Below are positions 2,708 to 48,849 of a DNA stretch of 64,000 nucleotides, piece after piece. The DNA lies in assembly GCA_036172245.1 (NCBI GenBank), contig JAYWIR010000049.1:124001-188000 (forward strand). The letters are read 5' to 3'. The notes beneath the pieces are model-generated. The model was not told where the DNA came from, did not search any database, and worked only from the letters and a program-made list of their open reading frames with translations. Origin of the DNA: Raillietiella orientalis. Taxonomy: Eukaryota. The number at the start of each line of letters is the position of its first letter. Positions within the stretch are counted from its first letter, which is position 1. A program made the translations under genes and the position numbers.

Positions 2708-2800
2708 GCTCCAGGGTGGAAGTGTTTTCTCGGTGCTCCTCGTGGCAGGAAGTCTCCCACAGTGCAAGCGTCGTGTGGTTCGGTGGTCGATCAGGCAGCG

Positions 2801-4295
2801 ATGCCTGACGCGAACACCAGGGATGGCCAGGGGGCAGCGGAAACGCCGCCCCTAGAGGCGATGGAGAGCCAGAAGGCGACGTTGCCGCCGCCCCCAGAAG
2901 CGATGGAGGTGGGGGCATCCGCCCCCACAGAATCGGTCCCCGCTGCAGCGCGGGCGTGGAGCGCCGTTGTCGGCGCCATCGCCTGCAGCCGCGGCGGAAT
3001 TGTCGACCTATGTGGAGGAGGGGTACAACCCTTCATTGTTCTACAAAGTAGGCAATTTATATTCTTTAGAGAGCGCGCGCGCCTTCTCGAAGGGCATGCG
3101 CGCTCTCGACGTGAAAGAGGAGGAGCTTAGCGCTCTGACCATCCGCAGCGGGGGTCAGTACGTTGAGGTCATCTGCAAACATGCATAGCTGGCCCAACGA
3201 CTGCTTAAAACTCCCGTTGTGATGGGGAAGCGCAGGCTTCTCCCCACTACGGCGGACCGCAGTATGGTGGTCCACCTTTTAGGCGTGACCGCGCCAATGC
3301 GCAAAGAACAGGTTCGCGCCGCTTTGGAACAGTTCGGAACGGTCCACGCGCAGTGGACGAAAGTAAGTACTTTCGAGGACTACACGGGGCTGCAACACGG
3401 CCTCACTGCTGCGCGCGTGACCGTTCGGGAGGGCTGCACTCTTCCCCACAAACTGGTGGTCGAAGGCGAAACCGTCGACCTCTGGTATGTGGGGAAGCCG
3501 AAATACTGTGGCTTCTGCAATACGTCGGGCCACCTCAAAAAGAGGTGTCCCAATGTGCAGTGCCAAGTATGCGGCACAATGGGCCACACGAGGGAGGTGT
3601 GCCCAAAAGCAGCAGTGCGGGTGGTTTCCAAGAGAAACCTTAAAAAACGCGCCCGGCTTCTGCAGAAAAGGCTGGCGGCGAAAGCTGCCGCGAAGGCTGT
3701 GCCACCCGCGCCCAAGACCCAGGCCGCACCTGAGACCCCGGAGACCAACGCCGAAAAAGTTGAGGGAGCCGGCCAGGAGACTGGGTGGCAAGTGGCAACG
3801 GCCAAAAAATCAAAGAAGGGGAGGAGGATGGAAAAGAAAATCGCCTACCAACAGAAGAAGAAAGAACAGGGTAGCGCGATAATTAAAGAGTGCAGCGTCG
3901 TTGTCGAACGCGTTCTCGATGTTGCCGAACGCTGCCGGAAAGAATTTGCCGCTACCGACGACCTCCCCTCTGTTGACACAGTCAACAGCGAGGGGAGCGA
4001 GCCGGCGGCGGCGTCCGTCATCGACACCACCATCGATGACGTAGCCTTCGCGCGAGCCGCGGAGGAGCTGGCAGCCTCGTTGCAGCCAGAACCCTCCAAG
4101 GCTGGCAAGAAGGCCGTAAGGCGTCCGGCCTCCCCTCAGGAGTCCCCCACTTCCGACCCCGAGGTGGAGGCCGGAAGCGCAGCCTCCGTTTCCACGGCAC
4201 CGCGCAAGAAGGCTGGACGTAAGTCCACAAAGCCAAGGAAGCTCGTCTCCCCAGCGAAGGGGAAGAGATGGCTTCCGCAAGCGAGGGTGCCATGA
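2801..4295 (+). pseudogene. A1 ORF1, gag-like nucleic-acid-binding protein, disrupted
   Basis: CGFCNTSGHLKKRC and CQVCGTMGHTREVC knuckles; frameshift near 2968 and TAG at 3186-3188 relative to the open A2 copy. Confidence 0.9.
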
Positions 4296-4473
4296 GCGTG
4301 GGAAACTCTCGGGACCCGTCGCCCGAGAGACTCCCACGCACGGACACGGAGGGGATGGAGGGGGTGGAGGCCGAACAGGTGCCTCAGGTGCCTGAGAAGG
4401 CCGAAACCCCCATGGACATCCCGCCCGCCTCGCAAGAGGAGGGCTCCCCCACACCTTAATCTTCCCAGCAGTA

Positions 4474-7400: not shown

Positions 7401-8052
7401 GAAGTGGGTGGTTACAATAACAATCTCCGGAAAGGAGAAGAAGATAGGAGAGTGGAAGACGGGCCAGTTAACAGATGCTGCGACCCCGAGTACGCCTCCC
7501 AATGGACTTCTGCGCTGGGGCGCGCCGCTCGATGTTCCCATTGAACATCTGAAGTGGCCCCCGGTGCTCATGAACACTTCCTCCCTCCATTTAAAATGGC
7601 AGGAGTCGGCTCTCCTGTTGCAGCACTGGGGACTTTCCTGCAACGCCCGCCGACACCACTGTACCTGGGGTGCGGTGGACCCCAATTGCGTCAGGTGTGG
7701 GGAACGGGAGTCCCTCCCCCACCTTCTAGTGGATTGTGTTGCCCTTCGGCCCCTTTGGTTTCTCTTTGCCGCGGCCATCGGAATCTCCTGCGGCAACCCC
7801 AGGGACGCACTGAAAGCCCTCTTCGTTGCCGACGCCCTGCGGCCAGCGTCCTCGATAGCAGCTTTGTGCTGCCTACGCGGGATCGTCACTGCTTGGAGCA
7901 AGGCTACGAGAGCACAACGCGACCAGGGTGCTATCCAGCCAGCCTCCCAGTTCCTGAGGAGGGCGTCCCGATGTCACCACCTGGATCCAGGAATACAGAA
8001 GGAGCTTGCCGGCATCCTGCAAAGGATGCAACGGCCCCACCAGCAACTGTGA
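4474..8052 (+). pseudogene. A1 ORF2, APE endonuclease-reverse transcriptase, disrupted
   Basis: WNVNG, LQEIH, NVYAP, GDFN, SIDH, LSDH; KAPG, WRPI, DLQKAFD, QGDSLSP, YADD, KYLG; CVRC..ESLPHLLVDC; several stops and frameshifts. Confidence 0.93.
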
Positions 8053-8272
8053 TCCCTTCCCTTACCCTCCCAACTTTTCTTTTCTTTTTTGTTTTGTTTT
8101 TTTTGTTTTTCCCCCTTCCCCCTGCTGCCGTGGTGGACCGTACCGGTCTGCGAACCGGTGACCCGGCAGGCTCTGTGTATCTCCGTGCGTGGCTGGAGCA
8201 ATGTTCCAGCCACCGCACGTCTTTGTAAAAGTTTATTTTACAATAAACGCCCCGGCGAAATCCGGGTGAAAA

Positions 8273-9105
8273 TCGAATGCTTCGTGCAAATCGATTGCGA
8301 CGGCAAAGGCTCCCGCCGAGTCCATCCCACCCTCTGCCCGATCTTCTTGGTCGAAGGGGGGAGCGAGGCTCCCTTGACCGTCCTGTGCAACGCGTTGCCG
8401 CAACTGCCACTATGAGCTGGCGAGGAGCAGGTTGGCCTCCATTGTTCGTCCGGGAACAGCATAGGTCTGCTAGGGACTCACCACGGAAGCGGCCACCCGC
8501 CCCAAACGCTCAGCCCACAACTTGGCATACAAATTTGCGTCCGCATTCACTACTGTGATGGGACGCCAGTTGCCAATGTTGCGTAAGTCTCCTTACTTCG
8601 GCAGGAGACGTACTTTAGCTGAGCGGAACGAGGCGGGAACTTCGCCGTGTTCGCGGATCAGCGCACTTAACCTGAGCACCAGGGGGGCTAGCTCTGGTGC
8701 GAAGCGATGGTAAAACTCCGCGGGCAGGCCGTCCTCCCCTGGTGCCTTCCTTCTCTTGAGCCTGTTGATGGCGGAGATGATCTCCGCCATCGTGAACGGT
8801 TCCGCCAATCTGGAACGGTCCTCCTCCTTGAGCGCGGGAGCACCATCCGGCAACAGGCGCTGCGCGAAATGGCGCTCAGGTGTTAGTGGCGCGTACAAGG
8901 AGGAATAAAACTCCCGCACGATGCGGCTTACCTGGGCTGGGCTGGAGCGTACTTGGCCCTGATGATCCAGCAGGCAGGCCGAGCCTGACTGCCAGTCCTG
9001 CCTCTCCGCCTCAGCCTTGAATTCAGCCAGGCGACGGACGTCGGGACGCCGGGAATAACGGCGCGCCTGGAGGTACGCCCGCTCGTTCCTGACACCATCA
9101 CCGAA
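8273..9105 (-). mobile_element. LINE 'H', middle fragment (linker to RT N-terminus)
   Basis: GFGDGVRNERAYLQARRY...KRRKAPGEDGLPAEFY...AVAIDLHEAFD; joins 2707 across the A1 TSD. Confidence 0.9.
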
Positions 9106-9204
9106 TCCCTTGGCGAGTGGACGTGTGTTTCCTTCGCTCCCGAGTGAGTCGACAGGAAGCGGTTTTTTCTTGTGCTGTTTGGTGTGGAACATCGTTGGTG
9201 TCCG

Positions 9205-10963
9205 ATGGCAGCGATGCCTGAGGACACCACGATGGAGGTAGGTGTGGGAGAGGCGTTTCATCACCCCTACAGCCTACAGAATCAGGGGCGTCCGCCCCGG
9301 AATCGCCCTCGCCGCTCAAGGGGAGGAGCTGGAGCGCCATGGTGGCCGCGCCGAGCGCGGAAACCATGGCCGAGATGGCGGCCTACCGGGCAGGTGGGTA
9401 CAAGCCCAGCTTGGTTTACCAGGTAGGCAATCTCTTTGACGGGCGAACTGCACGCGCATTTTCGAAAGCGCTGCAGAACGCCAACGTGTTGGAAAAGGAC
9501 CTTGACGGTCTATCCGTGCTCAGCAGGGGTCAGGGCGTCGAGGTTGTCTGCAAGGACATCACCTTGGCGCAAAGCTTGATAACCACCCCGCTGAACGTGG
9601 ACGGACGCAAGATCCTACCAGTCACGATGGACCGCTCCGTAGTGGTCCATCTGACAGGGATCACCAGCCGCATGACGCGGTCTGCGGTTGGTGATCAGTT
9701 AAGCAAGTATGGAGATGTTCACGCGCTATGGCCATAGGCCACAATCTTCGATGGCTACGATAGCCTTTTCGGAGGGCAGGCCGCCGCGCGCGTGACGGTG
9801 AAGGAGAGTGGGCTTCCCCACAAACTAGAGGTCAATGGCGAAGTCGTAGACCTCTGGTACGTGGGGAAACCCCGCTTTTGTGGCTACTGCAATGCAGTAG
9901 GACACTTGCGCAAGCGGTGCCCGAACATTGTGTGCCACTTATGCGGGGAGAAGGCCACGTACTCTGCGTATGCCCTAAACGCCCCACTCCAGTGCCGCCT
10001 GCTGCAAAGAAAGCACAGTCAAAACGCGGTAAACTGGTCGAAAGACCAAAAAGAGATACTGGCCGGCAGCAGCCGCTAGCCCCTGTTCCTCCCACACAGG
10101 CGTCGGAAGAAAAACCCTCCGAAGACGCGGGAGTCCAAGACGGCTGGCAGCTGGTCAAGGCCAGGAAGGAGAAAAAGGTGCCCCCCGCGGAACCCGCGAA
10201 AGCGGTAAAAAAGACAGCCGGCAAGGCGAAAAGACCTGGGCCGCGCTCTAAGACCATGCGGGAGTGTACGGTAGCACTGGAGCGCATAGCCGTTCCCGAG
10301 ATTGCCACCCGGGGCGACGAGCCTTCCCTCGCCGTTTCCGCCGCGCCCGAGGTTGGCGACGGCGAACCCTCTGTTTACACAGATGGTGAGCCGCGCGAAA
10401 TAGCGACGGTCGAAACCGAGGACGCCGCGTTCACTCAGGCGGCGGAGGAGCTCGCGGCCACGCAGGCCGAACGTGGGAACCCCTCGCGCAAGGCCGTGCG
10501 AAGGCCGGCACCCGCGAAAAAGGCCCCCACAGGTGAGTCGGACCTGGGGGCCGGAAGTGCATCCTCCTCCTCGGAGGCACCCCCCAGGAAGTCGGGACGC
10601 AATTCCCAGAAACCCAGGAGGAGCCTCCCCTCCACCAGCGAGGAGGAGAAGGAGGAAGGTAGCGGTAGCGTGGGAATCCCGGAGGGGGAACTCCCACGCT
10701 CGGAAGCCGTCGAGCCGGCCACCCCCATGGAGGAGGGTGAGCAGGGGGGCGAAGTCCTCCCTGCAGTCGCCGAGCCTGAACAGCCCGCCCCCATGGAAGA
10801 GGGCCAACAGGTAGGCGCGACCCCACCTAAGGGTGACCCCCTCGACGCGTCGTTACCCATGGAGAAGGGGGACCAGGTGCACGCAGCGCCTGACCCTCCT
10901 CCTCCACCTAGCGTCCCGCCCCAACAGGTGGCGGACGCCGCATCGCCATCTTCCCAGGAATAA
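9205..10963 (+). pseudogene. B1 ORF1, disrupted
   Basis: CGYCNAVGHLRKRC and CHLCGE-GHVLCVC knuckles, acidic/Pro-rich tail ending SSQE*; stop at 9735-9737 and frameshifts. Confidence 0.88.
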
Positions 10964-13900
10964 CACCTGGGCTCGCCAGTCGCCGTCGGATTCCCGCCGC
11001 CTGTTATAACGTCAACGGGCTGCGTGACGACGGTAACAGGCGAGATACGGCCGACACCCTGCGTGAGCTCGACCTGGCCCTGCTGCAGGAGATCCACGTG
11101 ATCACCGCGGCAGACGCCCAGGAGATCGAGACGATCGCGGGGGGCCGGTTGTATTGGCGGTGCGGCCTCCGCAATACCTGAGGGGTCGCGTTCTTCGTGA
11201 AGCCGGCCATCGACGCGGCCGTGAAGGGCGTGCGCTTCGATGACGACGGTCGGGTCGGTCAGCTGATTCTCTGCTGGTCCGACTCGATCGAATTGATCGT
11301 CACGAATGTGTACGCCCCCAGCGGTAAACAGGGATACAGCAACCGTACCAGGCTGCTCGATTCCCTGAAGCGCGACTGGCTGGCGGACACGAACGTGCGG
11401 AAGGCTCACCTGATAGCGGAAGATTTCAATCTCCGTCTGCTAACAGGTGAGCCAGAAACACTAGAGAACGCGATGAACGTGTTGTGCGCCGCCATGCGTG
11501 CGCGCAACTTGTTCGCGGGTGAGAGGGGAATGGTCCGCAGCATCGACCACGTCTTCCTCGACGCTGACCTGTGTTCACGGGTCGGCAAACGGGGGAGGGT
11601 TGCGTCGACGTTGTCGGACCATTCCCGGTTAATTTTCGAGATGCGGCCTCGTGACAAGGGACCGCCATCCAGGGATTGGCGTCTGCCGGGGGAATGGACG
11701 CGACTCTCAGGTGCGAAGGAATACCTTCGCGAATACCTGAGAGGTTTCACGCTCCGGAATCTCCAGGACTGGGACCTTTTTAAGGAATCGGTCCTCGAGT
11801 TCTGTGAGCAGTTCCCCCTGGATCGTCTGCCCCCCGGATTCGACGAGGGTGCTCGCAACTATCAGGCCTATTTACAGGCTCGTAGGTACGAGAGAACACC
11901 TAATGTCCGTCGCCTGGCCGAGTACTGCGCCGGGGCCGAACGCCAAGCCTGGGAATCCGGGTCGGCCAGCTTGCTGGACGACCAGGGCCTGGAATGTTCT
12001 TCCCCGGCGTCGGTACGGCATCTCGTGCGGAGTTTCTATTCCTCCCTTTACGCCAGGGAGCCCCCAGATCGAAACGCCTCTCGGCGCTTGCTTCCGGATG
12101 GCGCCCCGGCAATAGAGGAGGAGGAGATGGAAAGCCTCGACGAGCCTTTTACCACCGGCGAAATTCTCGGCGGTATCAAACGGCTCAAGAGGCGTAAAGC
12201 TCCAGGGGAAGACGGCTTGCCCGCGGAGTTCTTTCAGAGCTTCGCGGAAGAGCTGGCACCGCTGCTGCTTAAGTTGATCAGGCTGATGCGAGACGAAGGC
12301 GATGTTCCCTTCTCGTTTCGGTCAGCCAGAGTGAGGCTCCAGCCGAAAGGGGGAGACCTCAGGGATTTAAAGAACTGGCGTCCGATCACGATCGTGAATA
12401 CGGACGCCAAGTTGATCGCAGGGCTATGAACTTCGCGTCTGGGGCAGGTGGCAGAATCCGTAATTAGCCCGGAGCAGACTTATGCTGTTCCCGGGCGAAG
12501 TATGGATGCCAACCTCTTCTTCGCAAGGACATGGGTGCACCTGCAGAGAAGAGAGAAGAAAGGGATAGGGAAAGTCGGCAACCCCACATTGGGGCCGCCA
12601 GCCGGGCTGGGAAGGGACCCCCGGGCGGGGAAGGGAACCCTAGCGCTCGCAGTCGATCTCCACAAGGCGTTCGACTGTGTAGACCAGGAACTTCTCTTGG
12701 AGCTCCAGGGTCGCATGGGCATTTTACCCTCCCTGATTTCCTACCTGTGCTCTTGCTGGCGGAATGCGATAATTACCGTCTCATTCAGCGGTCACAAGGT
12801 GCATGGCATGCCGGGGCGGCGGGGCATAAGGCAGGGCGATAGCCTCAGCCCCCTGCCCTTCAGCACCTTCTTTGAGTTGGTGCTGAGAGCGTACAGGGTG
12901 ACCCTGGCCCCATTGCCGAGCTTGTGCCCCGGCACGTCCGCCGTTGCAGCGTACGTCGATGATCTTCTGCTCTTGTTGCCAATGTCCTCCCCGGCTAAGG
13001 CGGTCGGAGACTTCTTCGATCTGCTCAGCCGCGGGACCGGACTGCAGGTTAACAGGGCGAAGTCGTCGGTTGTGCCAATAGGTGCGGCGTGGGCAGGACA
13101 GCAGGACTGGTTCCGTCTGGGGAACCCTCGGCGAGGTGCTTCAAGTACCTTGGTGTGCCGTTGGGGGTCTACTCCCCAGCGGAAGCGTGGTCCAGCTGCC
13201 TCCAAAAAGTCGAAACGGCGATCGGCCCGTTTCTGGAAGGCAAGTTTCACTTGCCGGAACGGGCCGCGGTTTGGAACGCCTTCGCGGCCCCCATCCTCCG
13301 CCCCTTGCTTTTTGTTTGCCCCCCCACCGTGGAATCCAAGAAGAGGACGAAGGACCTCCTCCGTATCGCCCTTTGGGGCAAGGGGAGGCCCTGAGTCCCA
13401 CTGAAGGACTTGTGCGCTCCGCGTCGGGACGGCGGTCTTGGCCTCCTGACGCTGGAGCGCGTGGAGAAGCAGCTGCGGTGGCGAACCCTCGCCATCGCAG
13501 CGAAGATGTGGAGCACCCCTTGGTGCACTCCGGCCCGCCTCCTGGCCAGCCGTGTGTCCCGGTGCGATGGACTCGCTTCTTTTCTTCTCAGCCGTGGCCG
13601 GAAGATGCGAAGATGCGGCCTACTGCTCGGGCGCATGGCAACATTGGCCAAGGAGAACAGCTGGATGGTTTGCTGCCCCGCCAACTCCCCCGCCAGGCTG
13701 GAGGAGAATATTCGAACGTGGGCAGTAGTTAACCAGAGAAGCCACGAGACCTGGACTCGTCTCCGATGCAGCCCCTACGCCCGCTGCACGCTGCGGAATC
13801 TCCTGGAGAGTCCAGCAACATGCACGTGGGCAGAGACGACCTGCCTAGTTACGGCGCTACCCTTCCTAAGGAGGGCACTTCACAGCACCCGGACGCCAAG

Positions 13901-14548
13901 GTGGCAAGTCTCCTGCTGCATCGAGGGACGCGAGAAGTTGATCAGCGGCTGCACCACAGCAGAACTGGCCGACGCCACGACCCCGAGCGTCCTGCCGCGA
14001 GGATTATTAAGATGGGGCGAGCTGCTCGCCATCCCCAGGGATGAGCTGAAGTGGCCTTCGGTGATGAAGGAATCCAGGATCCTGCCACTCAAGTGGCAAG
14101 AGTCGGCGTTGCTTTTGTTGCACTGGGGTCTACCCTGCAACACGCGCCGCTTCCACTGGACGAGGGGAGCTGTGGATCCTGCATGTGCCAGGTGCGGGGA
14201 GCGGGAGTCGCTTCCCCACCTTATTGTGGATTGTGCTGCCCTCCGACCCCTTTGGGAACGGTTCGGGACGACCCTCGGTCTCCCCACGGGCAGCACCCCC
14301 AGAGACGTTCTTCGGCCCCTCTTCCTGAAGGACGCACTGCAGCCATCGCAGCCTTGTGCTGCGTCCGTGGCATCGTGGGGACATGGAGCGACGCCAACTA
14401 CGAAGGAGTGGGTCCACAGGCGAGGGATGTCATCCCGTATGCCAAACGCTTCTTTCGAAGAGCTGCCGGATGGCCCCAGCTGGGGAATATGCAGACTGAC
14501 CTCGAGGGCTTTGTTCGACGGATGGGCCCTCCCCACAGCGACCAGTGA
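10963..14548 (+). pseudogene. B1 ORF2 (APE-RT), disrupted, no AUG at the expected start
   Basis: YNVNGL, LQEIH, NVYAP, EDFN, LSDH, WRPI, DLHKAFD, QGDSLSP, YVDD, CARCGERESLPHLIVDC. Confidence 0.9.
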
Positions 14549-14753
14549 TCCCTTCCCTGCCCTACAAATTCTTTTTGTTTGTTTCTTTTTATTTTACTTT
14601 TTGTCTTATCCCCATCCCCCTTCGCTGTCGGGGAGTGCCACGCCGGGCTGCGTCCCGGTGTCCCGACAGGTCCTGTGTTTACGGCCGTGGTGGGGCCTTG
14701 TACCACGCATGTAAAGTTTATTAATAAACGCCCCAGGCGTACCCGGGTGATAA

Positions 14754-14878
14754 CACCGAAGCCCGGAGGAAGACGTTCCAGGGGAAACTGGTCGCAAAAC
14801 TCACGGACTGAGCACTTCATTTCGTCCCAGTCCGCGAGCGTCTGAAGCTGGAATCCTCGCAGGAAACAGCGTAGGTGT
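14754..14878 (-). mobile_element. LINE 'H', short upstream fragment, cut at ~14878
   Basis: EHLRCFLRGFQLQTLADWDEMKCSVREFCDQFPLERLPPGFG on the minus strand. Confidence 0.85.
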
Positions 14879-15937
14879 TCCTGCAGGAGACAGCTGACAC
14901 GTGGGCGAAGATTAATGGAAAGAATGAAGAGCTGTGGAACTGCCTGCGACGCGGCGCCTATTCCCGCTGCACTCTGCGAAAGATACTCCAGTGTCCAGCG
15001 AGAAGCACGTGGGCAGAGACAACCCCCCTACCTACGGCGATGCCCTTCCTGAGGAGGGCGCTCTCCAGCAGCCGCAAGCCTAGGTGGCAAGTCTCCTGCC
15101 GCATCGCAGGCAAGGAGAAGTTGATCAGCGGCTGGTCCACGGGTAAACTGGCGGACGCCAGTACCCCTAGTGTCCAGCCGAGAGGACTGCAGAGATGGGG
15201 CAAGCTACTCGGCATCCAGCCGGATGACCTGAAGTGGCCCCCGGTATTAATTCGATCTAGGATCCTCCCCCTGAAGTGGCAGGAGTCGGCGCTTCTGTTG
15301 TTGCATTGGGGTCTACCCTGCAACGCACGCCGCCACTACTGAACCAGGGGCCGTGTAGATCCTACTTGCATCAGGTGTAAGGAACGGGAAACTCTCCCCC
15401 ACCTCCTTGTTGATTGTGCTGCCCTCCGACCCCTGTGGGAACGTCTTCGTGCCTCCCTACGTATCCTGGAGGGCAGCCAGCCCAGAGACGTTTTTCGGCT
15501 TCTGTTCTTGCATGATGCCCTGCGTCCAGCAGCTGCCCTGGCTGCACTTTGCTGCGTACGCGGGATTGTGACGCGCTGGAGCATCGTCGGAAGACCGAAT
15601 CACGACAGGGATGCCGTCGTACTTGCAGTCCGCTACTCGCGGATTGTGACCAGATGGCCCCACCTGGAGATTATATGGACGGACCTCAAGGGCATCCTGC
15701 GAAGGGTGGACCCTCCTCTCAGTAATCAGTGATCCCACCCCAACCCTCCCAAATCTTTTTGTTTTTATGTTTTATTTTTCTTTTTGTTTTTCCCCCACCC
15801 CCTTCCGCTGCCGAGGAGAGTCGCGCCGGTCTGCGTACCGGCGACCCGGCAGGTCCAGTTGAGTTGGCCGTAGTGGGGCCTCGTACCACGAATTATAGAG
15901 AATTTATAATAAACGCCCCGGCGTGACCGGGTGGCAA
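14879..15937 (+). mobile_element. LINE 'C', 3' fragment with complete 3' UTR
   Basis: LKWQESALLLLHWGLPCNARRH, CIRCKERETLPHLLVDC; ends aataaacgccccggcgtgaccgggtggcaa. Confidence 0.9.
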
Positions 15938-18900
15938 CAATCAACTTGGCGTCCGCATTCACTATTGCGATGGGACCCCAGTTGTTCATGCTCCTCAGAT
16001 CTCCTCCCATAGGGACGAGCCGCACCTTTGCCGAACGAAACCAGGCGGGAACGTCACCTGTTTCGCGTATCAGCAAGGGGAGTTGCTGTACCAGGTGGGT
16101 AAGCTCAGACGCGAAAGTTTGATAAAACTCATCGGGCAGGCCGTCCTATCCTGGAGCCTTTCGCCTCTTGAGCTTTCCGATGACCGAGAGGATCTCGTCC
16201 ATCGTAGAAGGCTCGTCGAAGGTCTTTCTCTGCTCCTCTTCGATCGCTGGAGCGCCTTCCGGAAGCAGGAGTCGTGAGACGTTCCTCTCCGGAGGTGCCC
16301 TGGCATTCAGGGAGGAGTAGTAACTCCGCAGCAGGCCGCGGATTTGGGCAGGTGCCGAGTGCTCCTGGCCCTGATCGTCCAGTAAGCTGGCCAATCCGGA
16401 CTGCCAGGCTTGCCTCTCTGCTCCCGCTTTGTATTCCGAAAGCCTGCGGATGTCGGGGGTCCTAACGTAACGACGGGCCTGCAGGTAGGCTCGTTCGTTA
16501 CGGACCCCGGTCCCAAAACCCGTAGGTAGGCGGTGCAGAGGAAACTGGTCGCAGAACTCCTGGACCGACCGCTTGAAGCGGTCCCAATCCTGGAGTGTCC
16601 GCAGCATGAAGCTCCGTATGAACGTGCGGAGATGTTCCGCCGCGTCCGGGAGCTTCAGTCAGTCCCCTGGGAGACGCCACGCTGACGAGGGGGGGCCCCT
16701 GTCGCGCGGATGGATCTCGAGGACTAGCGGGCGATGGTCGGACAGCTCGCACGGTAACTTGCCGCGCCTGCCCACGCGAAGGCACAGGTGCTCGTCAAGA
16801 AACACGTGGTCAATGCTGTCTTCCATCCCCGGTGCACTGGCCAACAAATTACAGGTGTGCACCGCCATGCACACCTCGTTGACCAGGTCACGCTCGGGAT
16901 TCTGCTCATCTGGTTTCAGGCGAACGTTGAAATCGCCTGCAACCAGATGGGCATTCCACACGCCTGCTTCGGTCAGCCAGTCTCGCCGGAGGGCAAGGAA
17001 AAACTCTTTCCTCGCCCTCCTGTTCATCAGGTCCTTGCCGCTCGGTGCGTACACGTTCGTGACGATCAGATCGATCGAGTCGGACCACCTGAGAGTCAGC
17101 TGGCCTACACGATCGTGATCGTCGAACCGTACGCCGTGAGCCGCGGCCCCGACGGCTGGCCGAAGCAGCTAGGCGACACCGCAACTTTTCGCTCTCCCAC
17201 ACCTGTACAATAGCCGCCCTCTGGAGATCCCGTCGATCTCTTGCGCTTGTTCTGCAGAGATCACGTGGATCTCCTGCAGCAGCGCAAGGTCGTAGGAATC
17301 CAGAAGGGCGGATATGTCTCGTCTTCTGCCGGCGTCTGTCATGCCGTTCACGTTTCAAACGGCGATGCGGAGACGACGGCGGGAGGAGATTCCCGGCATT
17401 ACTGCTGGGAAGATTAAGGTGTCGGGGAGCCCTCCTCTTGCGAGGCGGGCAAGATGTCCATGGGGGTTTCGGCCTTCTCAGGCACCTGAGGCACCTGTTC
17501 GGCCTCCACCCCCTCCATCTCCTCCGTGTCCGTGCGTGGGAGTCTCTCGGGCGACGGGTGCCGAGAGTTTCCCACGCTCATGGCACCCTCGCTTGCGGAA
17601 GCCATCTCTTCCCCTTCGCTGGGGAGACGAGCTTCCTTGGCTTTGTAGACTTACGTCCAGCCTTCTTGCAAGGTGCCGTGGAAACGGAGGCTGCGCTTCC
17701 GGCCTCCACCTCGGGGTCGGTAGTGGGGGACTCCTGAGGGAAGGCCGGAATCCTTACGGCCTTCTTGCCAGCCTTGGAGGGTTCTGGCTGCAACAAGGCT
17801 GCCAGCTCTTCCGCGGCTCGCGCGAAGGCTACGTGATCGATGGTGGTGTCGATGACGGACGCCGCCGCCGGCTCGCTCCCCTCGCTGTTGACTGTGTCAA
17901 CAGAGGGGAGGTCGTCGGTAGCGGCGAATTCTTTCCGGCAGCGTTCGGCAACATCGAGAACGCGTTCGACAACGACGCTGCACTCTTTAATTATCGCGCT
18001 ACTCTGCTCTTTCTTCTTCTGTTGGTAGGCGATTTTCGTTTCCATCCTTCTCTCCTTCTTTGATTTTTTGGCCGTTGCCACTTGCCACCCAGTCTCCTGG
18101 CCGGCTCCCTCAACTTTTTCGGCGTTGGTTGCCGGGGTCTCGGGTGCGACCTGGGTCTTGGGCGCGGGTGGCACAGCCTTCGCGGCAACTTTCGCCGTCA
18201 GTCTTATCTGCAGAAGCCGGGCGCGTTTTTTAAGGTTTCTCTTGGAAACCACCCGCACTGCTGCTTTTGGGCACACCTCCCTCGTGTGGCCCATTCTGCC
18301 GCATACTTGGCACTGCACATTGGGACACCTCTTTTTGAGGTGGCCCGACGTATTGCAGAAGCCACAGTATTTCGGCTTCCCCACATACCAGAGGTCGACG
18401 GTTTCGCCTTCGACCACCAGTTTGTGGGGAAGAGTGCAGCCTTCCCGAACGGTCACGCGCGCAGCAGTGAGGCCGTGTTGCAGCCCCGTGTAGTCGTCGA
18501 AAGGACTTACTTTCTTCCACTGCGCGTGGACCGTTCCGAACTGTTCCAAAGCGGCGCGAACCTGTTGTTTGCGCATTGGCGCGGTCACGCCTAACAGGTG
18601 GTCCACCATGCTGCGGTCCGCCGTACTGGGGAGAAGCCTGCGCGTCCCCATCACAACGGGGGTTTTAAGCAGTCGTTGGGCCAGCTCTGGATGTTTGCAG
18701 ATGACCTCAACGTACTGACCCCCGCTGCGGATGGTCAGAGCGCTAAGCTCCTCCTCTTTCACATCGAGAGCGCGCATGCCCTTCGAGAAGGCGCACGCGC
18801 TCTCTAAAAAATATAAATTGCCTACCTTGTAGAACAATGAAGGGTTGTACCCCTCTTCCACATAGGCCGACAATTCCGCCGCGGCTGCAGGCAATGGCGC

Positions 18901-19167
18901 CGACACAACGGCGTTCCACGCCCGCGCTGCAGCGGAGACCGATTCTGTGGGGGCGGATGCCCCCACCTCCATCGCCTCTGGGGGCGGCGGCAACGTCGCC
19001 CCCAGGCTCTCCATCGCCTCTAGGGGCGGCGTTGCCGCTGCCCCCTGGCCATCCCTGGTGGTCGCGTCAGGCATCGCTGCCTGATCGACCACCGAACCAC
19101 ACGACGCTTGCACTGGGGGAGATTTCCTGGCACGAGGAGCACCGAGAAAACACGTCCACCCTGGAGC
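15938..19167 (-). mobile_element. LINE 'A2', 5' 3.2 kb of a family A copy, interrupted by C
   Basis: Closely similar to A1 2708-~5930; same 5' start gctccagggtgg; contains ORF1, APE and the start of RT. Confidence 0.95.
17578..19074 (-). CDS. A2 ORF1, open (~498 aa), two CCHC knuckles
   Basis: Uninterrupted frame from MPDATTRD to LPQARVP*. Confidence 0.85.
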   Translation of the reverse strand: MPDATTRDGQGAAATPPLEAMESLGATLPPPPEAMEVGASAPTESVSAAARAWNAVVSAPLPAAAAELSAYVEEGYNPSLFYKVGNLYFLESACAFSKGMRALDVKEEELSALTIRSGGQYVEVICKHPELAQRLLKTPVVMGTRRLLPSTADRSMVDHLLGVTAPMRKQQVRAALEQFGTVHAQWKKVSPFDDYTGLQHGLTAARVTVREGCTLPHKLVVEGETVDLWYVGKPKYCGFCNTSGHLKKRCPNVQCQVCGRMGHTREVCPKAAVRVVSKRNLKKRARLLQIRLTAKVAAKAVPPAPKTQVAPETPATNAEKVEGAGQETGWQVATAKKSKKERRMETKIAYQQKKKEQSSAIIKECSVVVERVLDVAERCRKEFAATDDLPSVDTVNSEGSEPAAASVIDTTIDHVAFARAAEELAALLQPEPSKAGKKAVRIPAFPQESPTTDPEVEAGSAASVSTAPCKKAGRKSTKPRKLVSPAKGKRWLPQARVP

Positions 19168-21363
19168 GCACAAGGCGTCCTACTGCGTGAACCAGAAGCT
19201 GTTCTTGGAGCTTATGGAACGCCTTGGGTTTCCGGCGCAACTCCTGCTGTATTTGCGCGCGTGCTGGCGCCACGCGCTAACCTGCATTACTTGCAGCGGC
19301 TGCCGCGTGTACGGTATTCCCGTGCGTAGGGCATCCGACAGGGCGACAGCTTAAGCCCGTTGCTCTTTAGCATCTTCTTCAAGTTGGTGCTGAGAGCGTA
19401 CAGGCTGACCCTGTCTCACTTGCCTTGCTGCTCTCCTGGTACGCCTGCCATTGCCGCCTACGCTGATGACCTGCTTCTTCTGCTCCCCATGTCCACTCCG
19501 GCGTCCAGTTTCGAGGATTTCTTCGACCTGATTCGTCGGGGGGCGGGCGTGAGCCTGAACAGAGAGAAGAGCGTGTTCGCTCCTGTGGGTGCGTCGAGGG
19601 AGGGGCAGTCCGACTGGATCCGCCTGGTCATCCCCACGGGCGGGTACTTTAAGTACCTTGGCGTTCTGTTGGGCGCTGTCGGCGCAGCCGATCCTTGGGC
19701 GGACTGTCTTCAGAAAGCAGAGTTGGCCATCAGTCCGTTCATTAACGGCAAGTTTACCCCTTAGGAACGGGCGACTATTGGAAACCCCTTCGTGGCCCCC
19801 CTCCTCCGTATTCTGTTTTTTGTTTTGGACCCCCCCTATGCGGCAAAACAGCGGTCTAAACGCTTGCTCAGGAACGCTCTCTAGGGTCCGGCGAGATCCA
19901 CGATCCGCGATAAAGATTTGGTTGCTCCGCGTCGGGATGCTGGTTTGGGTATCCTGACAATGGAGTGAATCTGCCTTCAGCTGCAGTTCCGACTGCTGGC
20001 ACTGTGTGCCCAGCTATAGACATCTCTCCTGTGTGTGCCAGCACGCATTCTCCTGCGGAGATGCGCCGGCAGCGGAGGATTTCTCTCGCTTTTGCCGAGC
20101 ACCCAATACAGGAAGCGTTGTTTTGGGTTTCCATTGCGGCAGTTGACCGCACTTCTGGAAGTTCATTCGTGGATCTCCTGCCGCCCAATGAACTTTGAAG
20201 CTTGAAGGGAGGAGTCTGTTGAATGCTGGGCGGCGTTCCAAGGAATACGCCCTGAATATCTTCGCTGCCTGCGCCAATTTTTTCCACGATCCTCGGAAGA
20301 AGTACTGCAGGACGAGGTGAAGTTTTCTACCCTGGCTTCCACGCTTCTTTCCGCAGCGCTGTATGCCCTTAGTGCAGGAAACGGCAGTTGCCAACCTGCG
20401 AGGTGGGAGGTTTCCTGCACGATAGCAAAAAAAACCAAACTCATTGGCGCCTTTAAGACGAGCGAGTTGGCGGACCGCGCCACTCCTCGTGTTACTTCAA
20501 AGGGACTCCTCCGGAGGGCACAAGAACTTGGAGTCACCCCCGAAGAACTTGTAGTCCCCCCACAGTGTGTCGACAGTTCGCTGCTCCCCCTTGCTTGGAA
20601 ACAAGCCGTGTTGCTTTTCGTTCACTGGGGTTTTCAGTGCAAAGAGTGTTGGCATCGTGACTCCGGGGACTTGCTTCTGCGAACTGCGTTCGGTGCGGAT
20701 CGACGGAGTCGATTTCGAACCTACTTCTGGACTACGGTGTCTTACAAGGACCGTGGCGCAGACTGGCAACAGAACTCTTGCATCCCGTGGACACCGCAAG
20801 AGACTTGCGGCGACGATTCTTCACGCCGAGCGTTCTGTGTATAAGCGCAAGGATTGCAATCATCGGTTGCATACGCGCGATAGTTTCCGTCCGCCAGGCG
20901 CTGATAATCAACAAGCAGCACCATGAGGTGATCGGCAAAGCATCTTCCTATATTTAAGGAGCCGCCAGATGCCCTCAATTGACCGAGGATACAAAAAGGG
21001 ATCTCGCTAGCATACGCCGGCGGTTTACAGACGCTACCCAACAGCTCACCCGGTGAACCTTTCCCCTCGCCCCCTTCAAATGTTTTTTTTTTTCACTTCC
21101 GCCCTATTAGGCTCCGGAACATTCTAGGTGCTCTTTATTTGAATCCCCGTGAGTACGGAACTTCACCAAAAACTCGTTACCCCTCTTTCCAAATTTAGAT
21201 TTTTGTTTGTTATCCTCCTATTCCCTCAGTGTTGTTGGAAGCGGTTTGTTAACCAGGCCTGTGTGCCGGTAACCTCTCTTTGCTCCTTGTCGTTTCTTTG
21301 GTTGAAGACATCGTCTTTGAGCGGTCTATTTTTAATAAACGCCCCAGCGTGACCGGGTGAAAA
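19168..21363 (+). mobile_element. LINE 'X', 3' half of a divergent, degraded family
   Basis: HKASYCVNQKLFLELMERLG, AYADD, FKYLGV, LAWKQAVLLFVHWG; ends aataaacgccccagcgtgaccgggtgaaaa. Confidence 0.88.
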
Positions 21364-24300
21364 ATTTCAATCTCCGCCTTCTAACAGGTGAGCCGGAAAC
21401 ACAAGTGAACGCGATGAACGAGTTGTGCGCCGCCATGCGTGCGCGCAACTTGTTCGCAGGTTAGAGGGGAATGGACCGCAGCATCGACCACGTCTTTCTT
21501 GAAGCTGACCTGTGTTCACGGGTCGGCAAACGGGGGAGGGTTGCGTCGACGTTGTCGGACCATTCCCGGTTAATTTTCGAGATGTGGCCTCGTGACAAGG
21601 GACCGCCATCCAGGGATTTGGTGTCTGCCGGGGGACTGGACGGGACTCTCAGGTGCGAAGGAACACCTTCGCAAATTCCTAAGAGGCGTCACGCTCCAGA
21701 ACCTGTCCGATTGGGACCTTCTCAAGGCCTCGGTCCGGGAGTTCTGCGAGCAGATCTCCCTGGACCGCCTGCTCCCCGAATTCGGCGAGGGTCCCCGCAA
21801 CCATAGGGCCTATTTACAGGGCTGTAGTTACGAGAGAACTTCTAATGTCCGTTGCCTGGCCGAGGACCGCGCCGGGACCAAACAGCAAGCCTGGAAATCC
21901 GGGTCGGCCAGCTTGCTGGACGAGCAGGGCCGTGAATGTCCGTCCCCGGCGTCGGTACGGCATCTCGTGCGGAGTTATTATTCCTCCCTTAACGCCAGGG
22001 CGCCCCCGGATCAAGATGCTTCTCGGCTCTTTCTTCCGGATGGTGCGGCGGCAATAGGGAAGGAGGAGTCGTTAAGCCTCTATGAGCCTTTTTCTACCGG
22101 CGAAATTCTCGCCGGTATCAAAAGGCTGAAAAGGCGGAAAGCTCCAGGGGAAGACGGCTTGCCCGCGGAGTTCTATCAGAGCTTCGCGGAAGAGCAGGCG
22201 CTCCTGCGGCTTCAGCTGACAATGCTGATCCGTGACGGAGGCGGTGTTCCCGCCTCGTTTCGGTCAGCCAGAGTGAGGCTCCTTCCTAAAGGGGGAGACC
22301 TTAGGAATTTCAACAACTGGCGTCCGATCGCGATTGTAAATACGGACGCCAAGTTGGTTGCCAAGCTATGGGCTTCGCGTCTGGGGCAGGTGGCAGATTC
22401 CATAATTAGCCCGGAGCAGACATATGCTGTTCCCGGGCGATGTATGGATGCCAACCTCTTCTTCGCGAGCACATGGATGCACGCGCAGAGGTGTCAAAAG
22501 GAAGGGAAAGGAAAAATCGGCAACCCCACTTTGGGGCCGCCAGCATGGCAGGGAATGGACTCCCTGGTAGGAAAGGGGGCTTTAGCGCTCGCAGTCGATC
22601 TCCATCAGGCGTTCGACTGTATTGACCAGGCGCTTTTGTTGGAGCTCCTGGGTCGCATGGGCTTCCCACCCTCCTTGATTACATATTTGTGCTCTTGCTG
22701 GCGGAATACGATTATCTGCATCTTTTGCAGTAGTCAAAAGGTGTATGGCGTGCCAGTGCGGCGGGGCATACGGCAGGGAGATAGTCTCAGTCCCCTGCTC
22801 TTTAGCACCTACTTTGAGTTGGTGCTGAGAACGTACAGGGTGACTTTGGCCCCCTTGCCGAGCTCGTGCCCCGGCACGCCCGCCGTAAGTGTTTATGCCG
22901 ACGATCTTCTGCTCCTGTTACCTGAGTCCATCCCGGTGAAGGCGGTCGGAGTTTTTTTCGATTTCCTCAGCCGCGGGACCGGACTGCAGGATAACAGGGC
23001 AAAGTCGTCGGTGGTGCCCGTTGATGCGGCGTGGGCAGAACAGCAGGACTGAGTCTGTTTAGGGATTTCCACGGCGAGTTGCTTCAAGTACCTTGGTGTG
23101 CCGTTGGGGGACTTCTCCCCTGCGGAAGCGTGGTCCAGCTGCCTCCAAAAAGTCGAGACGGCGATGGGCCCGTTCCTGGAAGGCGAGTTTCACTTGCCGG
23201 AACGGGCCGCGGTTTGGAACGCCTTTGCGACCCATATCCTGCGCCCCTTTTTGTTTGCCCCGCCCCAGGAGTAGTTAAAAAGAGGACGAAGGACCTCCTC
23301 CGCATCGCACTTTGGGGCAAGTGGAGGCCCGAAGTCCCTTTGAAGGACCTTTGCGCTCCTTGTCGGGACGGCGGACTTAACCTCCTGACGCTGGAGCGCG
23401 TGAAGAAACAGCTGCGATGGCGTACCCTCGCAGCGAAGATGTGGAGCACCTCGTGGTGCATTCCGGCTCTCCTACTTGCCAGTCGTGTTTCCCGGTGCGA
23501 GGAACTCGCATCTTTTCTTCTGTGCCCCAGCAGGAAGATCAGAAGATGCGGCCTACAGCTGAAGCGCATGGCATCGTTAGCCACGGAGAACAGCTGGATG
23601 GTTTGCTGCCCCCCCAACTCCTCTGCCTGGCTGGAGGAGAACATCGGAACCTGGGCAGTGGTAAGCCAGAGAAGTCAGGTAACGTGGAATCGTCTCCGAT
23701 GCGGCCCCTATGCCTGCTGCACTCTGAGGAATCTCCTGGAGAATCAAGCTAGAAGCACGTAGGAAGAGACAACCTGCCTTGCTACGGCGCTGCCCTACCT
23801 GAGGAGGGCGCTTCACAGCAGTCGGACGCCATGGTGCAAGTCTCCTGCTGCATCGAGGGACGGGAGGAGAGAATGAGCGGCTGGACCATGGGTCAACTGG
23901 CGAACGCCACGACCCCTAGCGTGCATCCGCGAGAACTAAGAAGATGGGGCGAGCTGCTGGCCAACCCTACGGATGTGCTGAAGTGGCTCCCGGTAATGAA
24001 GGAATCCAGGATCCTGCCCCTTAAGTGGCAGGAGTCGGCGCTGCTACTGCTGCACTGGGGTTTACCCTGCAACGCACGCCGCTTCCACTGGACAAGAGGA
24101 GTTGTGGATCCTGCGCGTGTCAGGTGCGGAGAGCGGGAATCGCTCTCCCACCTTATTGTGGACTGTGCTGCCCTCCATCCCCTTTGGGAACGATTTCAGA
24201 CGACCCTCGGTCTTCCTACGGGCAGTTCCTCTAGAGACGTTCTTCGGCCCCTCTTCGTGAAGGACGCCCTGCAGCCAGCCGCAGCCCTCGCAGCCTTGTG

Positions 24301-24699
24301 CTGCGTCCGAGGCATCGTGGCGGCATGGAACGACACCAGCAAGTAAGGAGTGGGTCAACACGCGAGGGATGTCATCCCATATGCCCAACGCTTCTTGCGG
24401 AGAGCTGCTGGATGGCCCCAACTGGGGAATATACGGATGGACCTCGAGGGCTTCCTTCAACGGATGGGCCCTCCTCTCAGCGAACAGTGATCCCTTCCCT
24501 GCCCTCCAACCTCTTTTGTTTGTTTGTGTTTTTATTTTTACTTTTGTTTTTTCCCCATCCTTTTTCGCTGCCGGGGAATGCCACTCCGGGCAGCGTCCCT
24601 GCGTCCCGGTAGGTCCCGTGCATAAGGCCGTGAGCGGGGCCTGGTACCGCAATTGTAGAGTTTTTATTAATAAACGCATCGGGCGTACCCGGGTGGCAA
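21364..24699 (+). mobile_element. LINE 'B2', B-like ORF2 from the APE (G)DFN motif to the 3' end
   Basis: Colinear with B1 11423-14753; WRPI, DLHQAFD, QGDSLSP, YADD; ends aataaacgcatcgggcgtacccgggtggcaa. Confidence 0.92.
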
Positions 24700-27400
24700 C
24701 ACCAAATCCCCGAGGCAGGCGGTGCAAAGGGAAATCCTCGCAGAACTCTCAAACCGAGACCTTCATGCGGTCCCAGTCTTCGAGGTTGCGTAGGATGACG
24801 CCTCTCAGGAACTGACGGACATGTTCCGCCGCACCGGAGATGCGCGTCCAGTCCCCTGGCATACGCCACGCCCTGGATGGTGGTCCTTTGTCGCGTGGCA
24901 TAATCTCGATTATCAACCGGAAGTGGTCCGGTAGCGTCAACGGAAGTTTCCCTCGTCTGCCGACCCGTGGGCACAGGTCGGCGTCAAGGAAGACGTGGTC
25001 TACGCTTTGTTCAATTTCCGGTAGGTCCCCCAGGAAGTTGCGCGTAAGCATAGCGGCGAACAGCTCGTTGGTTGCGTCTTTTTGCCTGCAAGGCACACCT
25101 GAGAGCAGGCGAATGTTGAAATCTCCACCGATCAGATGTGCCTTGAGTACGTTTGTATCCGCCAGCCAGTCGCGCTTCACGGTTTCGAGGAACCGGGAAC
25201 GTTCCCCGTACCTGCGTCCTCCGCTTGGAGCGTACACATTAGTAACGACAAGTTCGAACGAGTCGGGCCACCTAAGGATAAGCTGGCCAACCCAACTGTT
25301 GTTGTCGAATCGTACGTCCTTGACGAAGGAAGCGACTGCTGGCCTCATAAAAAACGCGACGCCACAGGTGTTGCGAGCGCCGCATTGCCAAAACAGACGA
25401 CCCCCTGCGATCCTTTCGATCTCCTGGGCGTTCTCCGCGGTTATCACGTGGATCTCCTGCAGGAGTGCCAGGTCGAAGTCACGCAGGGTGTCGGCCGTGT
25501 CCCGCCTGTTGCCGTCATCGCGCAGCCCGTTGACGTTCCAGCAGGCTAAGCGTATCCTACGGCGACAGGCGAGTCCAGATGTTAATCCTGGGAAATTGGC
25601 AATGGGGCTCCCGCCACCTTGTCGGGCGGGACGCTAGGACGAGGGGGTGCGTCGCGCACCGCTTCTCCCTCCTCCATGGAGGGCGATTCGTCGTCGGGGC
25701 CTTGCAGAGGAAGTAGGGGTTCACCCACCTGCATATACTCCTCCAAGGGGGTCGCTAGCTGCACGGTGTCGGGGAATGAGATATTCCCACCCTCGCCTCC
25801 CACGCTGCCGGCTTCCCCCTCGGGGGCCGATTCATCCGCCTCCTTATTGATCCGGATGCGTTTCCTGGGATTCTGAGACTTACGTCCCCTCTTCTTTGGT
25901 GGCGCCTCCGCTGAAGAGGACGCACTTTCGACGTCCGGATCGGCCTCACCTGCCTCCGGAGCCTTCCTCGCGGCCGGCCTTTGCAAGGCTTTTCGCGAGT
26001 TCTTTTCACGGCCTTGCAGTTCAGCCGTGAGTTCTTCCACCGCCTGCTGGAAGGCGGCCTCCTCGATCGCGTCGAGCGCGTCGCGCGGTTCCCCCTGTGT
26101 TTCGCCAGAGGGTTCACCATCGACCGTCGCAACTTCGGCGAACGGAGGGGGGGGATTGCTCCCCCGGTGGCGGCATCGGGTGCCTCCACACGTTCTAATT
26201 TTACCGAACACGCGCGGAGCTTTTCGCGGCACGGTTTTTCGCGCTGCGTTTTTGTTTTCACCGCGTTTCGTTCGGGACTCCCGGGTTTTCTTCGTGGCTG
26301 TTCCGTCTGCCAGCCTCCGCCGTCACCAGCGTCGTCGGGAGTGTTCTCAACCGACGTTTGCTGTGAGGGCTTAGGGACTGGCATCTGGGTGTTTACAGCC
26401 TGTTTCTGTGTATGCGTCTCTCCCGTGCGTTTCCCCTTTGCCTTTTTGGCAGCGGATGGGGACGGGATTTCCCTTCTTAAGCACACCTTGCGGATGTGGC
26501 TCTTATTTCCACATAAGTGGCATTGGATGTTAGGGCACCGCTTTTTTAGATGCCCTGTAGCATCGCAATGGCCACAATACTTGGGCTTACCCACGTACCA
26601 AGCATCGACTTTTTCTTCGCCGATATTCAGTTTGTGGGGAAGCCCACCATTCTCTGGTAGGGTGACGCGGGCTGCGGCCATCCCACTGAATAGCCTTCCG
26701 TACGTTCGGAAGACATTGGGTTCGGCCCAATACGCGTGCACCCTACTATGCTTCGACAACTCCTCATGGACGTTAGTTTTGTCCATTCGGAGTGATACGC
26801 CTGTGAGGTGGACCACGACGGAGCGGTCCTCCGTCACAGGGAAGATCCTGCGGCCGTCCACTGTAATAGGGGTGTTCAGCAGTCGCTGCGCCAGACTCTC
26901 TTTGCATGTCAGCTCAACTCGCTGGCCCCTACTAAGGACGGATAGGCCTAAAAGGTCTTCCTCCCTCACGTTCAACCTTTGGAGCTCCATTTCGAAGGAG
27001 CGTGCAATTTTTTCATCAAACACACTGCCTACCTTATAGATCAGAAACGGCTTGTAGCCGCTGTCCTTGTATGCAGTCTGCTCCGCTACTGCAGCCGGGG
27101 ATGGTGCAGCAACGACGTCACTCCAACTCCTCGCCAATGGCGAAGAGGGTCGCGAAGAGGCGGTTGCCCTGATCCCGATGGGGCAAGTGCCCCGGATTCC
27201 GTGAGGGCGGATGCCCCCACTTTCATTGGTGGAGGTGAGCATGTCGCTTGTCCTCCTCCAACTTCCATTGCGGTGTCCTCAGGCATTTCTGCCATGGGAC
27301 ACCGGTGCTCCCACACACCAGACAACCAACGAAAAGCTTCCCACTAACCAGTCCGTGGAGCGATGCCAAACCACGTACGCTCCCTAGAACGCCACGGGGA
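24700..27400 (-). mobile_element. LINE 'D', 5' part (5' UTR, ORF1 ~27295-25582, APE), interrupted by B2
   Basis: CGHCDATGHLKKRC, CHLCGNKSHIRKVC; WNVNGL, NVYAP, GDFN, SVDH, LPDH; stops at LPRGFG. Confidence 0.92.
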
Positions 27401-48712: not shown

Positions 48713-48849
48713 ACTTTGTGCGCCAGAGTTCGTCGTGGCGCTCATTTTAAGAAACAAACGAGCATGCGTAGGGACATGAGCCCTACAGCGTTCGAAAGAG
48801 TTCGCAACTTGTTGAGTCTACGGCAGGCAGGCCGGCGAGGGTCGACTCG

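Follow-up and report, generated by a model that had tools for sequence, protein, structure and literature searches.

Known targets of site-specific long interspersed nuclear elements (LINEs) include RNA genes, telomeric and simple repeats, and a DNA transposon. Among the site-specific LINEs that encode an apurinic/apyrimidinic endonuclease (APE), Tx1L, Keno, Kibi and Mutsu represent the Tx1 clade and R1, TRAS and SART the R1 clade; human L1 has a looser choice of site, with nicking at a TTTT/AA consensus and priming on poly(A). In the sections of two reviews that deal with target choice, the targets of such LINEs are given as RNA genes, microsatellites, telomeric repeats and transposons (PMC4640811, PMC3747384), and Tx1 is placed within the L1 group (PMC3747384). 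Cnl1 of Cryptococcus is described as a LINE that inserts preferentially within itself and forms nested arrays (PMC9942834). Here we analyzed a stretch of 64,000 nucleotides from Raillietiella orientalis (assembly GCA_036172245.1, contig JAYWIR010000049.1, positions 124,001 to 188,000 of the forward strand; hereafter the window), which holds a nest of LINEs, and found that two copies of one LINE family, family B, lie antisense at the same codons of the second open reading frame (ORF2) of two different LINE families.

As outlined for the Tx1 and R1 clades in the same review sections (PMC4640811, PMC3747384), family B combines an APE with a reverse transcriptase (RT), and would integrate by target-primed reverse transcription (TPRT), in a fixed orientation, at a single defined sequence that is present in many copies. 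Different from the Tx1 and R1 targets reviewed there, the target of family B is a conserved codon motif in ORF2 of LINE families of the same lineage, which is hit antisense. The second system that resembles this locus is Zepp/ZeppL, L1-clade LINEs of the green algae Chlorella, Coccomyxa and Chlamydomonas, for which the available excerpts describe, as here, LINE-only nests that arise as elements insert into copies already present, with elements that are often 5'-truncated and 3' ends placed head to tail (PMC3446292, PMC8226300). In both cases the GC content of the nest exceeds that of its surroundings, with 61% vs 53% given for Coccomyxa in these excerpts (PMC3446292, PMC8226300) and ~60% vs 44-55% in the window. 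Unlike Zepp, several families at 65-75% identity co-occur in this nest, and whereas Zepp and L1-1_CR are listed as ending in (A)n in the part of the review concerned (PMC3747384), at the 3' end of the nest elements a hairpin sequence is followed by 2-5 A-rich bases, which does not amount to a poly(A) tail. The excerpted Zepp/ZeppL accounts make no mention of codon-exact antisense sites (PMC3446292, PMC8226300), and no named Chlorella/Coccomyxa, trebouxiophyte or chlorophycean protein was found among the 19 and 45 protein matches to the nest. Cnl1 arrays are subtelomeric and run in tandem (sense), whereas family B lies antisense within other families, and its own copies lack the exact target. 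No report of codon-exact antisense targeting of LINEs by LINEs was found in the literature searched, the original Zepp papers (1997, 2003), which may describe site-exact nesting, lying outside that search. By analogy with these systems, the best reading is that family B may work like a site-specific LINE of the Tx1/R1 type and build a nest like that of Zepp.

The two family B copies, B1 and B2, and their hosts, H and D, are arranged as follows.

9110 to 14753, plus strand: B1, a full-length family B LINE of 5644 nt, ending in AATAAA, the hairpin sequence and GGGTGATAA
9099 to 9109, no strand assigned: left copy of the B1 target-site duplication, caccgaatccc, the G-F-G codons in host sense; 10 of its 11 bases match the right copy
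14754 to 14764, no strand assigned: right copy of the B1 target-site duplication, caccgaagccc
14754 to 14880, minus strand: 5'-most retained piece of host H, reading ...EFCDQFPLERLPPGFG; H is 5'-truncated here
8273 to 9109, minus strand: middle piece of host H, from GFGDGVRN to the RT motif ...AIDLHEAFD
598 to 2707, minus strand: 3' piece of host H, with RT, C-terminal region and tail ...GGGTGTGAA
21365 to 24699, plus strand: B2, family B, 5'-truncated at the equivalent of B1 position 11424, ending ...GGGTGGCAA
24700 to 27401, minus strand: host D, a different LINE family, with 5' untranslated region, ORF1, APE and sequence up to LPRGFG; it ends at the B2 tail
24947 to 25540, minus strand: APE (Exo_endo_phos) domain of host D, PF03372

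In B1, the ORF1 region carries a putative CCHC knuckle, and ORF2 combines APE motifs and RT with a putative zf-RVT-like region at the C terminus; this ORF2 has one in-frame stop and frameshifts. B1 is full length because, in alignment, it starts where D and another nest element, E1 (see below), start. At its 3' junction (14753/14754) the sequence reads ...cccgggtgataa/caccgaagcccgg, or ...GGGTGATAA/CACCGAAGCC across the element end, and the corresponding junction of B2 (24699/24700) reads ...cccgggtggcaa/caccaaatccccg, or ...GGGTGGCAA/CACCAAATCC across the element end. Both copies thus end in ...GGGTG(AT/GC)AA directly before CACCRAA, the reverse of the host G-F-G codons. On the minus strand, the flank of B1 reads ...FPLERLPPGFG (H), and that of B2 reads ...FPLHRLPRGFG (D), with ...EFCEDFPLHRLPRGFG, and continues to the D 5' end at ~27401; the insertion site lies ~70 codons downstream of the D APE domain. 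When B1 and one duplicate are removed, H is restored in frame (LPPGFGDGVRNERAYLQARRY / ...EFCDQFPLERLPPGFGDGVRNERAYLQARRY...) with no codon lost or gained, and this read-through matches the uninterrupted E1 copy, LPTGFGTKVRNERAYLQARRY. A preliminary description of this DNA had placed B1 and B2 antisense at PxGFG codons, in the same register in different hosts, with a B1 target-site duplication of 7 bp perfect or 11 bp with one mismatch. The junctions and flanks bear this out: B1 and B2 join their hosts behind one and the same base of the second Gly codon, and the B1 duplication is 7 nt long if perfect and 11 nt long with 1 mismatch. At the level of sequence, the junctions establish that B cDNA was primed twice from a 3'-OH after ...GGTG on the host sense strand, with the second cut 11 nt away in the case of B1.

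At both 3' junctions the host reading frame runs on into the antisense strand of the insert, staying open for 118 codons in the case of H into B1 (14401-14880, minus strand) and for more than 200 codons in the case of D into B2 (24065-24748, minus strand). These open frames are probably an effect of GC content. When the ORF spanning the H/B1 junction (P0020) was used as a protein query, none of 26 candidates gave a scoring match.

The preliminary description had further held that H and D are distinct, and had named equal divergence of insert and host, as expected from one duplicated composite, as the observation that would speak against two insertions. The divergence is unequal. In a global alignment, B1 and B2 share 2832 bases with 491 mismatches over 3323 aligned bases (85.2%; lowest 100-nt bin, 77%), whereas the flanks of H and D after the junction (14754-14880 vs 24700-24826) share 84 of 127 bases with 43 mismatches (66%). 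The inserts therefore differ at 14.8% and the host flanks at 33.9% of positions (Fisher p = 1.4e-7; binomial p = 6e-8). Within these 127 nt, the likeness of H to D (0.66) is no higher than that of either to the homologous stretch of B1 itself, of B2 itself or of the E1 copy (0.65-0.71). Furthermore, the H/D differences fall on codon positions 1, 2 and 3 in the numbers 11, 8 and 24 (p = 1.5e-4), and this third-position excess indicates that H and D diverged as working genes under selection, not as decaying copies of a composite. There was no sign of a co-converted flank, as the first 30 host bases past the junction match at 21 of 30. Together, these data indicate that family B inserted on two separate occasions, once into H (B1) and once into D (B2), which belong to different LINE families.

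The window contains six sites homologous to the B target. Those with ...TTYGGTG, namely H (GGCTTCGGTG) and D (GGATTTGGTG), are both occupied, and the other four are all empty: E1 and its relative E1' carry TTTGGGA (GGTTTTGGGA), B1 itself TTCGACG (GGATTCGACG) and B2 itself TTCGGCG (GAATTCGGCG). The version in B1 lies at the following position.

11827 to 11844, plus strand: the unoccupied target version of B1 itself, LPPGFD, with ...GGATTCGACG in place of ...GGNTTYGGTG

In positions 1-32000, TTYGGTG occurs 12 times and GGNTTYGGTG four times, three of each being B sites. Given the scarcity of GGNTTYGGTG in the nest, a motif of ~10 bp would suffice to explain the site choice. Among sequencing runs, one DNA run (0.37 of the sampled words) and no RNA run was listed as containing this DNA. 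Logan contigs of the DNA run, compared at 80% likeness over 8300-15000, showed no joint across 9109/14754, and none of the 6 contig loose ends listed out of 240 lies at 9110 or 14753; the contig pieces listed are 254-618 nt long, too short to show junctions, empty sites or other flanks. Patterns made from the family B 3' end had 0 matches in viral_contigs and 18 in metagenome_contigs, all of them chance matches that look bacterial and lack LINE protein similarity, and the junction pattern had 3 chance bacterial matches in genome_contigs (prokaryote genomes).

A second family, family A, repeats this behavior at another site, in line with the earlier statement that its target differs from that of family B. 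The elements involved, together with a third invading family (B3), are the following.

2708 to 8272, plus strand: E1, a full-length family A element, antisense in H at the HKAFD (...AIDLH-K-A-F-D) codons of RT
15940 to 19167, minus strand: E1', the other copy of family A, with 95.7% likeness to E1 and H' as its host; the B3 tail cuts off the 3' part of E1'
19168 to 21364, plus strand: H', a distant LINE family, host of E1'; its tail ...GGGTGAAAAA abuts the B2 5' end
14881 to 15939, plus strand: B3, a third family, 5'-truncated, ~73% like B1/B2, inserted antisense into the RT of E1' at N-A-D-A-K-L codons

E1 is flanked by a target-site duplication of 15 nt with 1 mismatch (2693-2707 / 8273-8287), and the flank at the family A 3' end begins TCGAATGC... 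(KAFD codons). The 5' junction of E1' lies at the same host position in H'. Of 3222 bases, 3083 are shared by the two family A copies (95.7%), compared with 438 of 643 (68%) for the hosts H (2049-2692) and H' (19183-19825), and likeness steps from the one level to the other exactly at the element 5' end, indicating that family A hit one host position twice, in two families. The pair 2049-5929 vs 19825-15942 was also considered as a 3.9-kb inverted duplication, and resolves into two family A insertions plus 68%-alike hosts. Insertion at one site and in one orientation thus holds for 2/2 family B and 2/2 family A copies in the window. The RT region of family A itself (6149-6178, plus strand) is almost identical to its target in H (8272-8301, minus strand), so that family A, unlike family B, could target its own copies.

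The elements of the nest are assigned to the L1-group (APE-type) non-LTR (long terminal repeat) retrotransposons by their domain content and similarity matches. The nest copies are decayed L1-like LINEs with APE and RT. RVT_1 was detected in them with E-values down to 1.5e-18 (Pfam), and Exo_endo_phos (PF03372) was found in D at 24752-25633 on the minus strand (E 3.6e-10; 40.4 bits vs a cut-off of 24.5; residues 32-229) and in E1 at 4396-4896 (E 9.8e-8). The APE call in D came from the longer stop-free stretch, the shorter D ORF (24749-25447) giving only a weak Pfam match and no PDB match. The signals of zf-RVT (E 0.004, 18 bits, under the cut-off of 27.5) and zf-CCHC (E 0.018, under its cut-off) are weak, and the C-terminal Cys/His motif and the CCHC knuckle of ORF1 are visible by eye. 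The best solved relative of the B2 ORF in the PDB is human L1 ORF2p (E 3.8e-34 to 3e-33), which has the same APE-linker-RT order; for R2 the E-value is ~1e-12. Named protein relatives are plant L1-type LINEs with identity of at most 29%; the closest protein, P0001 (JGI), is 64% identical, and begins after the insertion site, so it is silent on the site. A protein atlas search returned only generic RVT_1 clusters.

All copies share a 3' end of ~30 nt, AATAAACGCCCC..CCGGGTG, followed by 2-5 A-rich bases and no long poly(A). These last ~30 nt are conserved in 8 copies representing at least 6 families, which are 65-75% alike elsewhere, and the tails after GGGTG read ATAA, GCAA, AAAA, AAAAA, AAAAC and TGAA.

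Based on these findings, we propose that family B is probably an L1-like, APE-encoding LINE whose TPRT integration is target-specific. In this proposal, the B ORF2 protein would nick the sense strand of a resident LINE ORF2 just after ...GG-N-TT-Y-GGTG (Gly-Phe-Gly codons), and the freed 3'-OH would prime reverse transcription of B RNA from its conserved 3' end, which would comprise AAUAAA, a short GC hairpin sequence, GGGUG and 2-5 A-rich bases. Priming from a nick in the sense strand would leave B antisense to its host. The other strand would be cut 11 nt away to give the 11-bp duplication, and reverse transcription would either complete the 5' end, as in B1, or stop early, as in B2. By analogy with Tx1/R1-clade LINEs, we infer that the APE endonuclease or another DNA-binding part of the ORF2 protein reads at least ~10 bp. 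The conserved 3' hairpin sequence would serve as the RNA handle for the RT, and repeated hits of this kind would build the LINE-only nest. By eye, the primer end (...GGTG) showed no microhomology to the RNA tail; because ...GGTG cannot pair with an A-rich tail, priming presumably proceeds without primer-tail pairing, which sets family B apart from L1, as does the reuse of the site to the base.

The alternative that survives best, which we nonetheless regard as unlikely, is that the place is set by DNA or R-loop structure or by chromatin at conserved transcribed stretches of ORF2, where the displaced sense strand is nicked, so that insertions are always antisense. It would account for the orientation of all 5 nested insertions (E1 in H, B1 in H, E1' in H', B3 in E1' and B2 in D), for the location of the three distinct insertion sites within 826 nt of a ~5.6-kb element, for the match of only 11/15 bases between the family A targets, and for the near identity of family A RNA to its target region in H. 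However, over three distinct sites neither the antisense orientation (p ~0.25) nor the clustering (p ~0.06) is significant by hand arithmetic, the sequence of family B itself matches the H target at only ~21/33 bases by eye, which makes RNA-DNA pairing weak for this family, and reuse of a site to the exact base is the outcome expected of sequence-specific endonucleases.

A second alternative is homing-like copying, in which family B entered once and was then carried to the homologous place of the other host by recombinational repair or gene conversion. One observation hints at conversion between nest copies: B1 11500-11699 and B2 21441-21641 are 94-97% alike, while the remaining ~3 kb are 77-91% alike (~84%; p = 3e-6). 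This block, near the B2 5' end, is possibly a gene-conversion tract or a trace of a chimeric B2 template. Against such copying of the whole insertion, hosts that are so little alike, also next to the junction, and that lack a co-converted flank are a poor substrate for homologous repair; the B1 target duplication is a mark of TPRT, not of conversion; and B2, with its intact 3' tail and 5' truncation, looks like a TPRT product. We consider this route very improbable. Hardly any credence is left for the duplication of one old composite, B inside its host, whose shared junction would record a single insertion event. The B1-B2 alignment does extend ~85 nt past the B ends into the hosts, and large repeats such as 2049-5929 vs 19825-15942 exist in the nest. 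But the host flanks differ far more than the inserts, H and D are as distant as unrelated families, their differences show purifying selection that an interrupted dead copy could not have accumulated, and the repeat in question consists of two independent family A insertions in moderately similar hosts. That near-random or short-motif insertion by chance put two hits on homologous positions can be dismissed as scarcely believable. It is true that the nest is almost entirely LINE, so that any insertion there lands in a LINE. By hand arithmetic from element length and motif counts, however, the chance that a second, random hit shares base and strand with the first in a ~5.6-kb LINE is ~1 in 11,000, or ~0.003 after allowing for 28 pairs among ~8 junctions. 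Even if TTYGGTG is needed, two picks from 11 distinct pre-insertion sites draw the homologous pair with p ~0.02, and family A shows the same coincidence independently.

Several points weigh against target-specific integration of family B as proposed above. The sample consists of two B and two A events, all in one 32-kb nest, and the split between occupied (2/2) and unoccupied (0/4) target versions gives a Fisher p of 0.07 by hand arithmetic. Nine other TTYGGTG and one other GGNTTYGGTG (21614) in the nest are empty, so a short motif alone is not sufficient. The two family A target copies, which match at 11 of 15 bases and differ near the presumed nick, are harder to reconcile with a strict reading of sequence by the element. 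The 3' part of D is absent from the window, which precludes a check of target duplication or read-through for B2. The 94-97% block means that some sequence exchange between nest copies is possible. Finally, compensatory change in the 3' hairpin was found in 0/7 pairs, so that the hairpin counts as conserved sequence only, its structure being unproven.

A wider and more doubtful proposal is that of a guild of related L1-like families, each homing antisense to its own conserved ORF2 codon motif of its rivals: family B to G-F-G, family A to K-A-F-D and the third family to N-x-D-x-K. In such a guild, a target would mutate away only with difficulty because the rival needs the motif, and an invader would escape self-attack through small changes at its own site (in family B, GFD, or GFG-E with a different third base). 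In passing, a self-growing, GC-rich, LINE-only block resembling the candidate centromere DNA of some algae would arise.

With respect to its setting, the nest coincides with the GC-rich half of the window (1-31.5 kb; GC 55-63%, ~60% overall), the other half (32-64 kb) having a GC content of 44-55%. Self-comparison and a protein map show the GC-rich part to be filled by related non-LTR retrotransposon copies on both strands, with at least 12 LINE pieces occupying 598-31300 (self-comparison and tblastn map). At three places (21364/21365, 27402/27401 and 29609/29610), the intact tail of one LINE stands against the 5' end of another on the same strand. The first of these joins the H' tail to the B2 5' end, and the second joins the tail of a LINE labelled M to the full 5' end of D. 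The 5' end is truncated in two and full in one of these head-to-tail junctions, a tandem pattern like that of Zepp and Cnl1, and repeated use of a site surviving at the 3' junction and template jumping fit them equally. At 14880/14881, the truncated 5' ends of H (minus strand) and B3 (plus strand) meet head to head without a duplication, and neither the 3' part to be expected for E1' nor the left part of H' is present. A large target deletion or another rearrangement could be the cause. Beyond the H tail, positions 1-597 are GC-rich and not recognizably LINE by tblastn, with a CCHC-like knuckle, CGNCGKEGH, on the minus strand; this piece may be a very diverged ORF1 in tandem with H, and its reading as an antisense RT motif was rejected, as neither tblastn nor six-frame reading supported it.

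The rest of the window (32329-64000) forms a giant palindrome, with arms at 34532-45941 and 49136-60545 that are 100% complementary over 11,410 nt around a spacer of 3.2 kb, and outer arm parts (32329-34548 vs 60530-64000) that are only 84-93% alike. It could be real and young, or a fold-back artefact of the assembly. An exon-like ORF at 35415-36152 (plus strand) encodes an HCO3- transporter membrane domain (PF00955, E 5.6e-14), as suits a eukaryotic source, and, because it lies within the palindrome arms, appears a second time in mirror position at 58925-59662 (minus strand). Weak LINE C-terminal fragments with 32-40% amino acid identity to B1 are found at 45486-45948 (plus), 49132-49415 (minus), 48100-48763 (plus) and 62528-62842 (plus), at the inner arm ends and in the spacer, suggesting that these LINEs occur outside the nest too.

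The case is small, with two events per family in one window, and its present value is that of a sharply defined hypothesis. If true, the use of a selected codon motif of other LINEs as a fixed target would be a safe haven of a new type and a case of one transposon parasitizing another. A further gain would be an L1-group endonuclease or ORF2 protein with ~10-bp recognition, which may be of interest for programmable RNA-templated insertion. Moreover, there would be a concrete and testable mechanism by which LINE-only nests like those of Zepp, candidate centromeres in some algae, grow by themselves.

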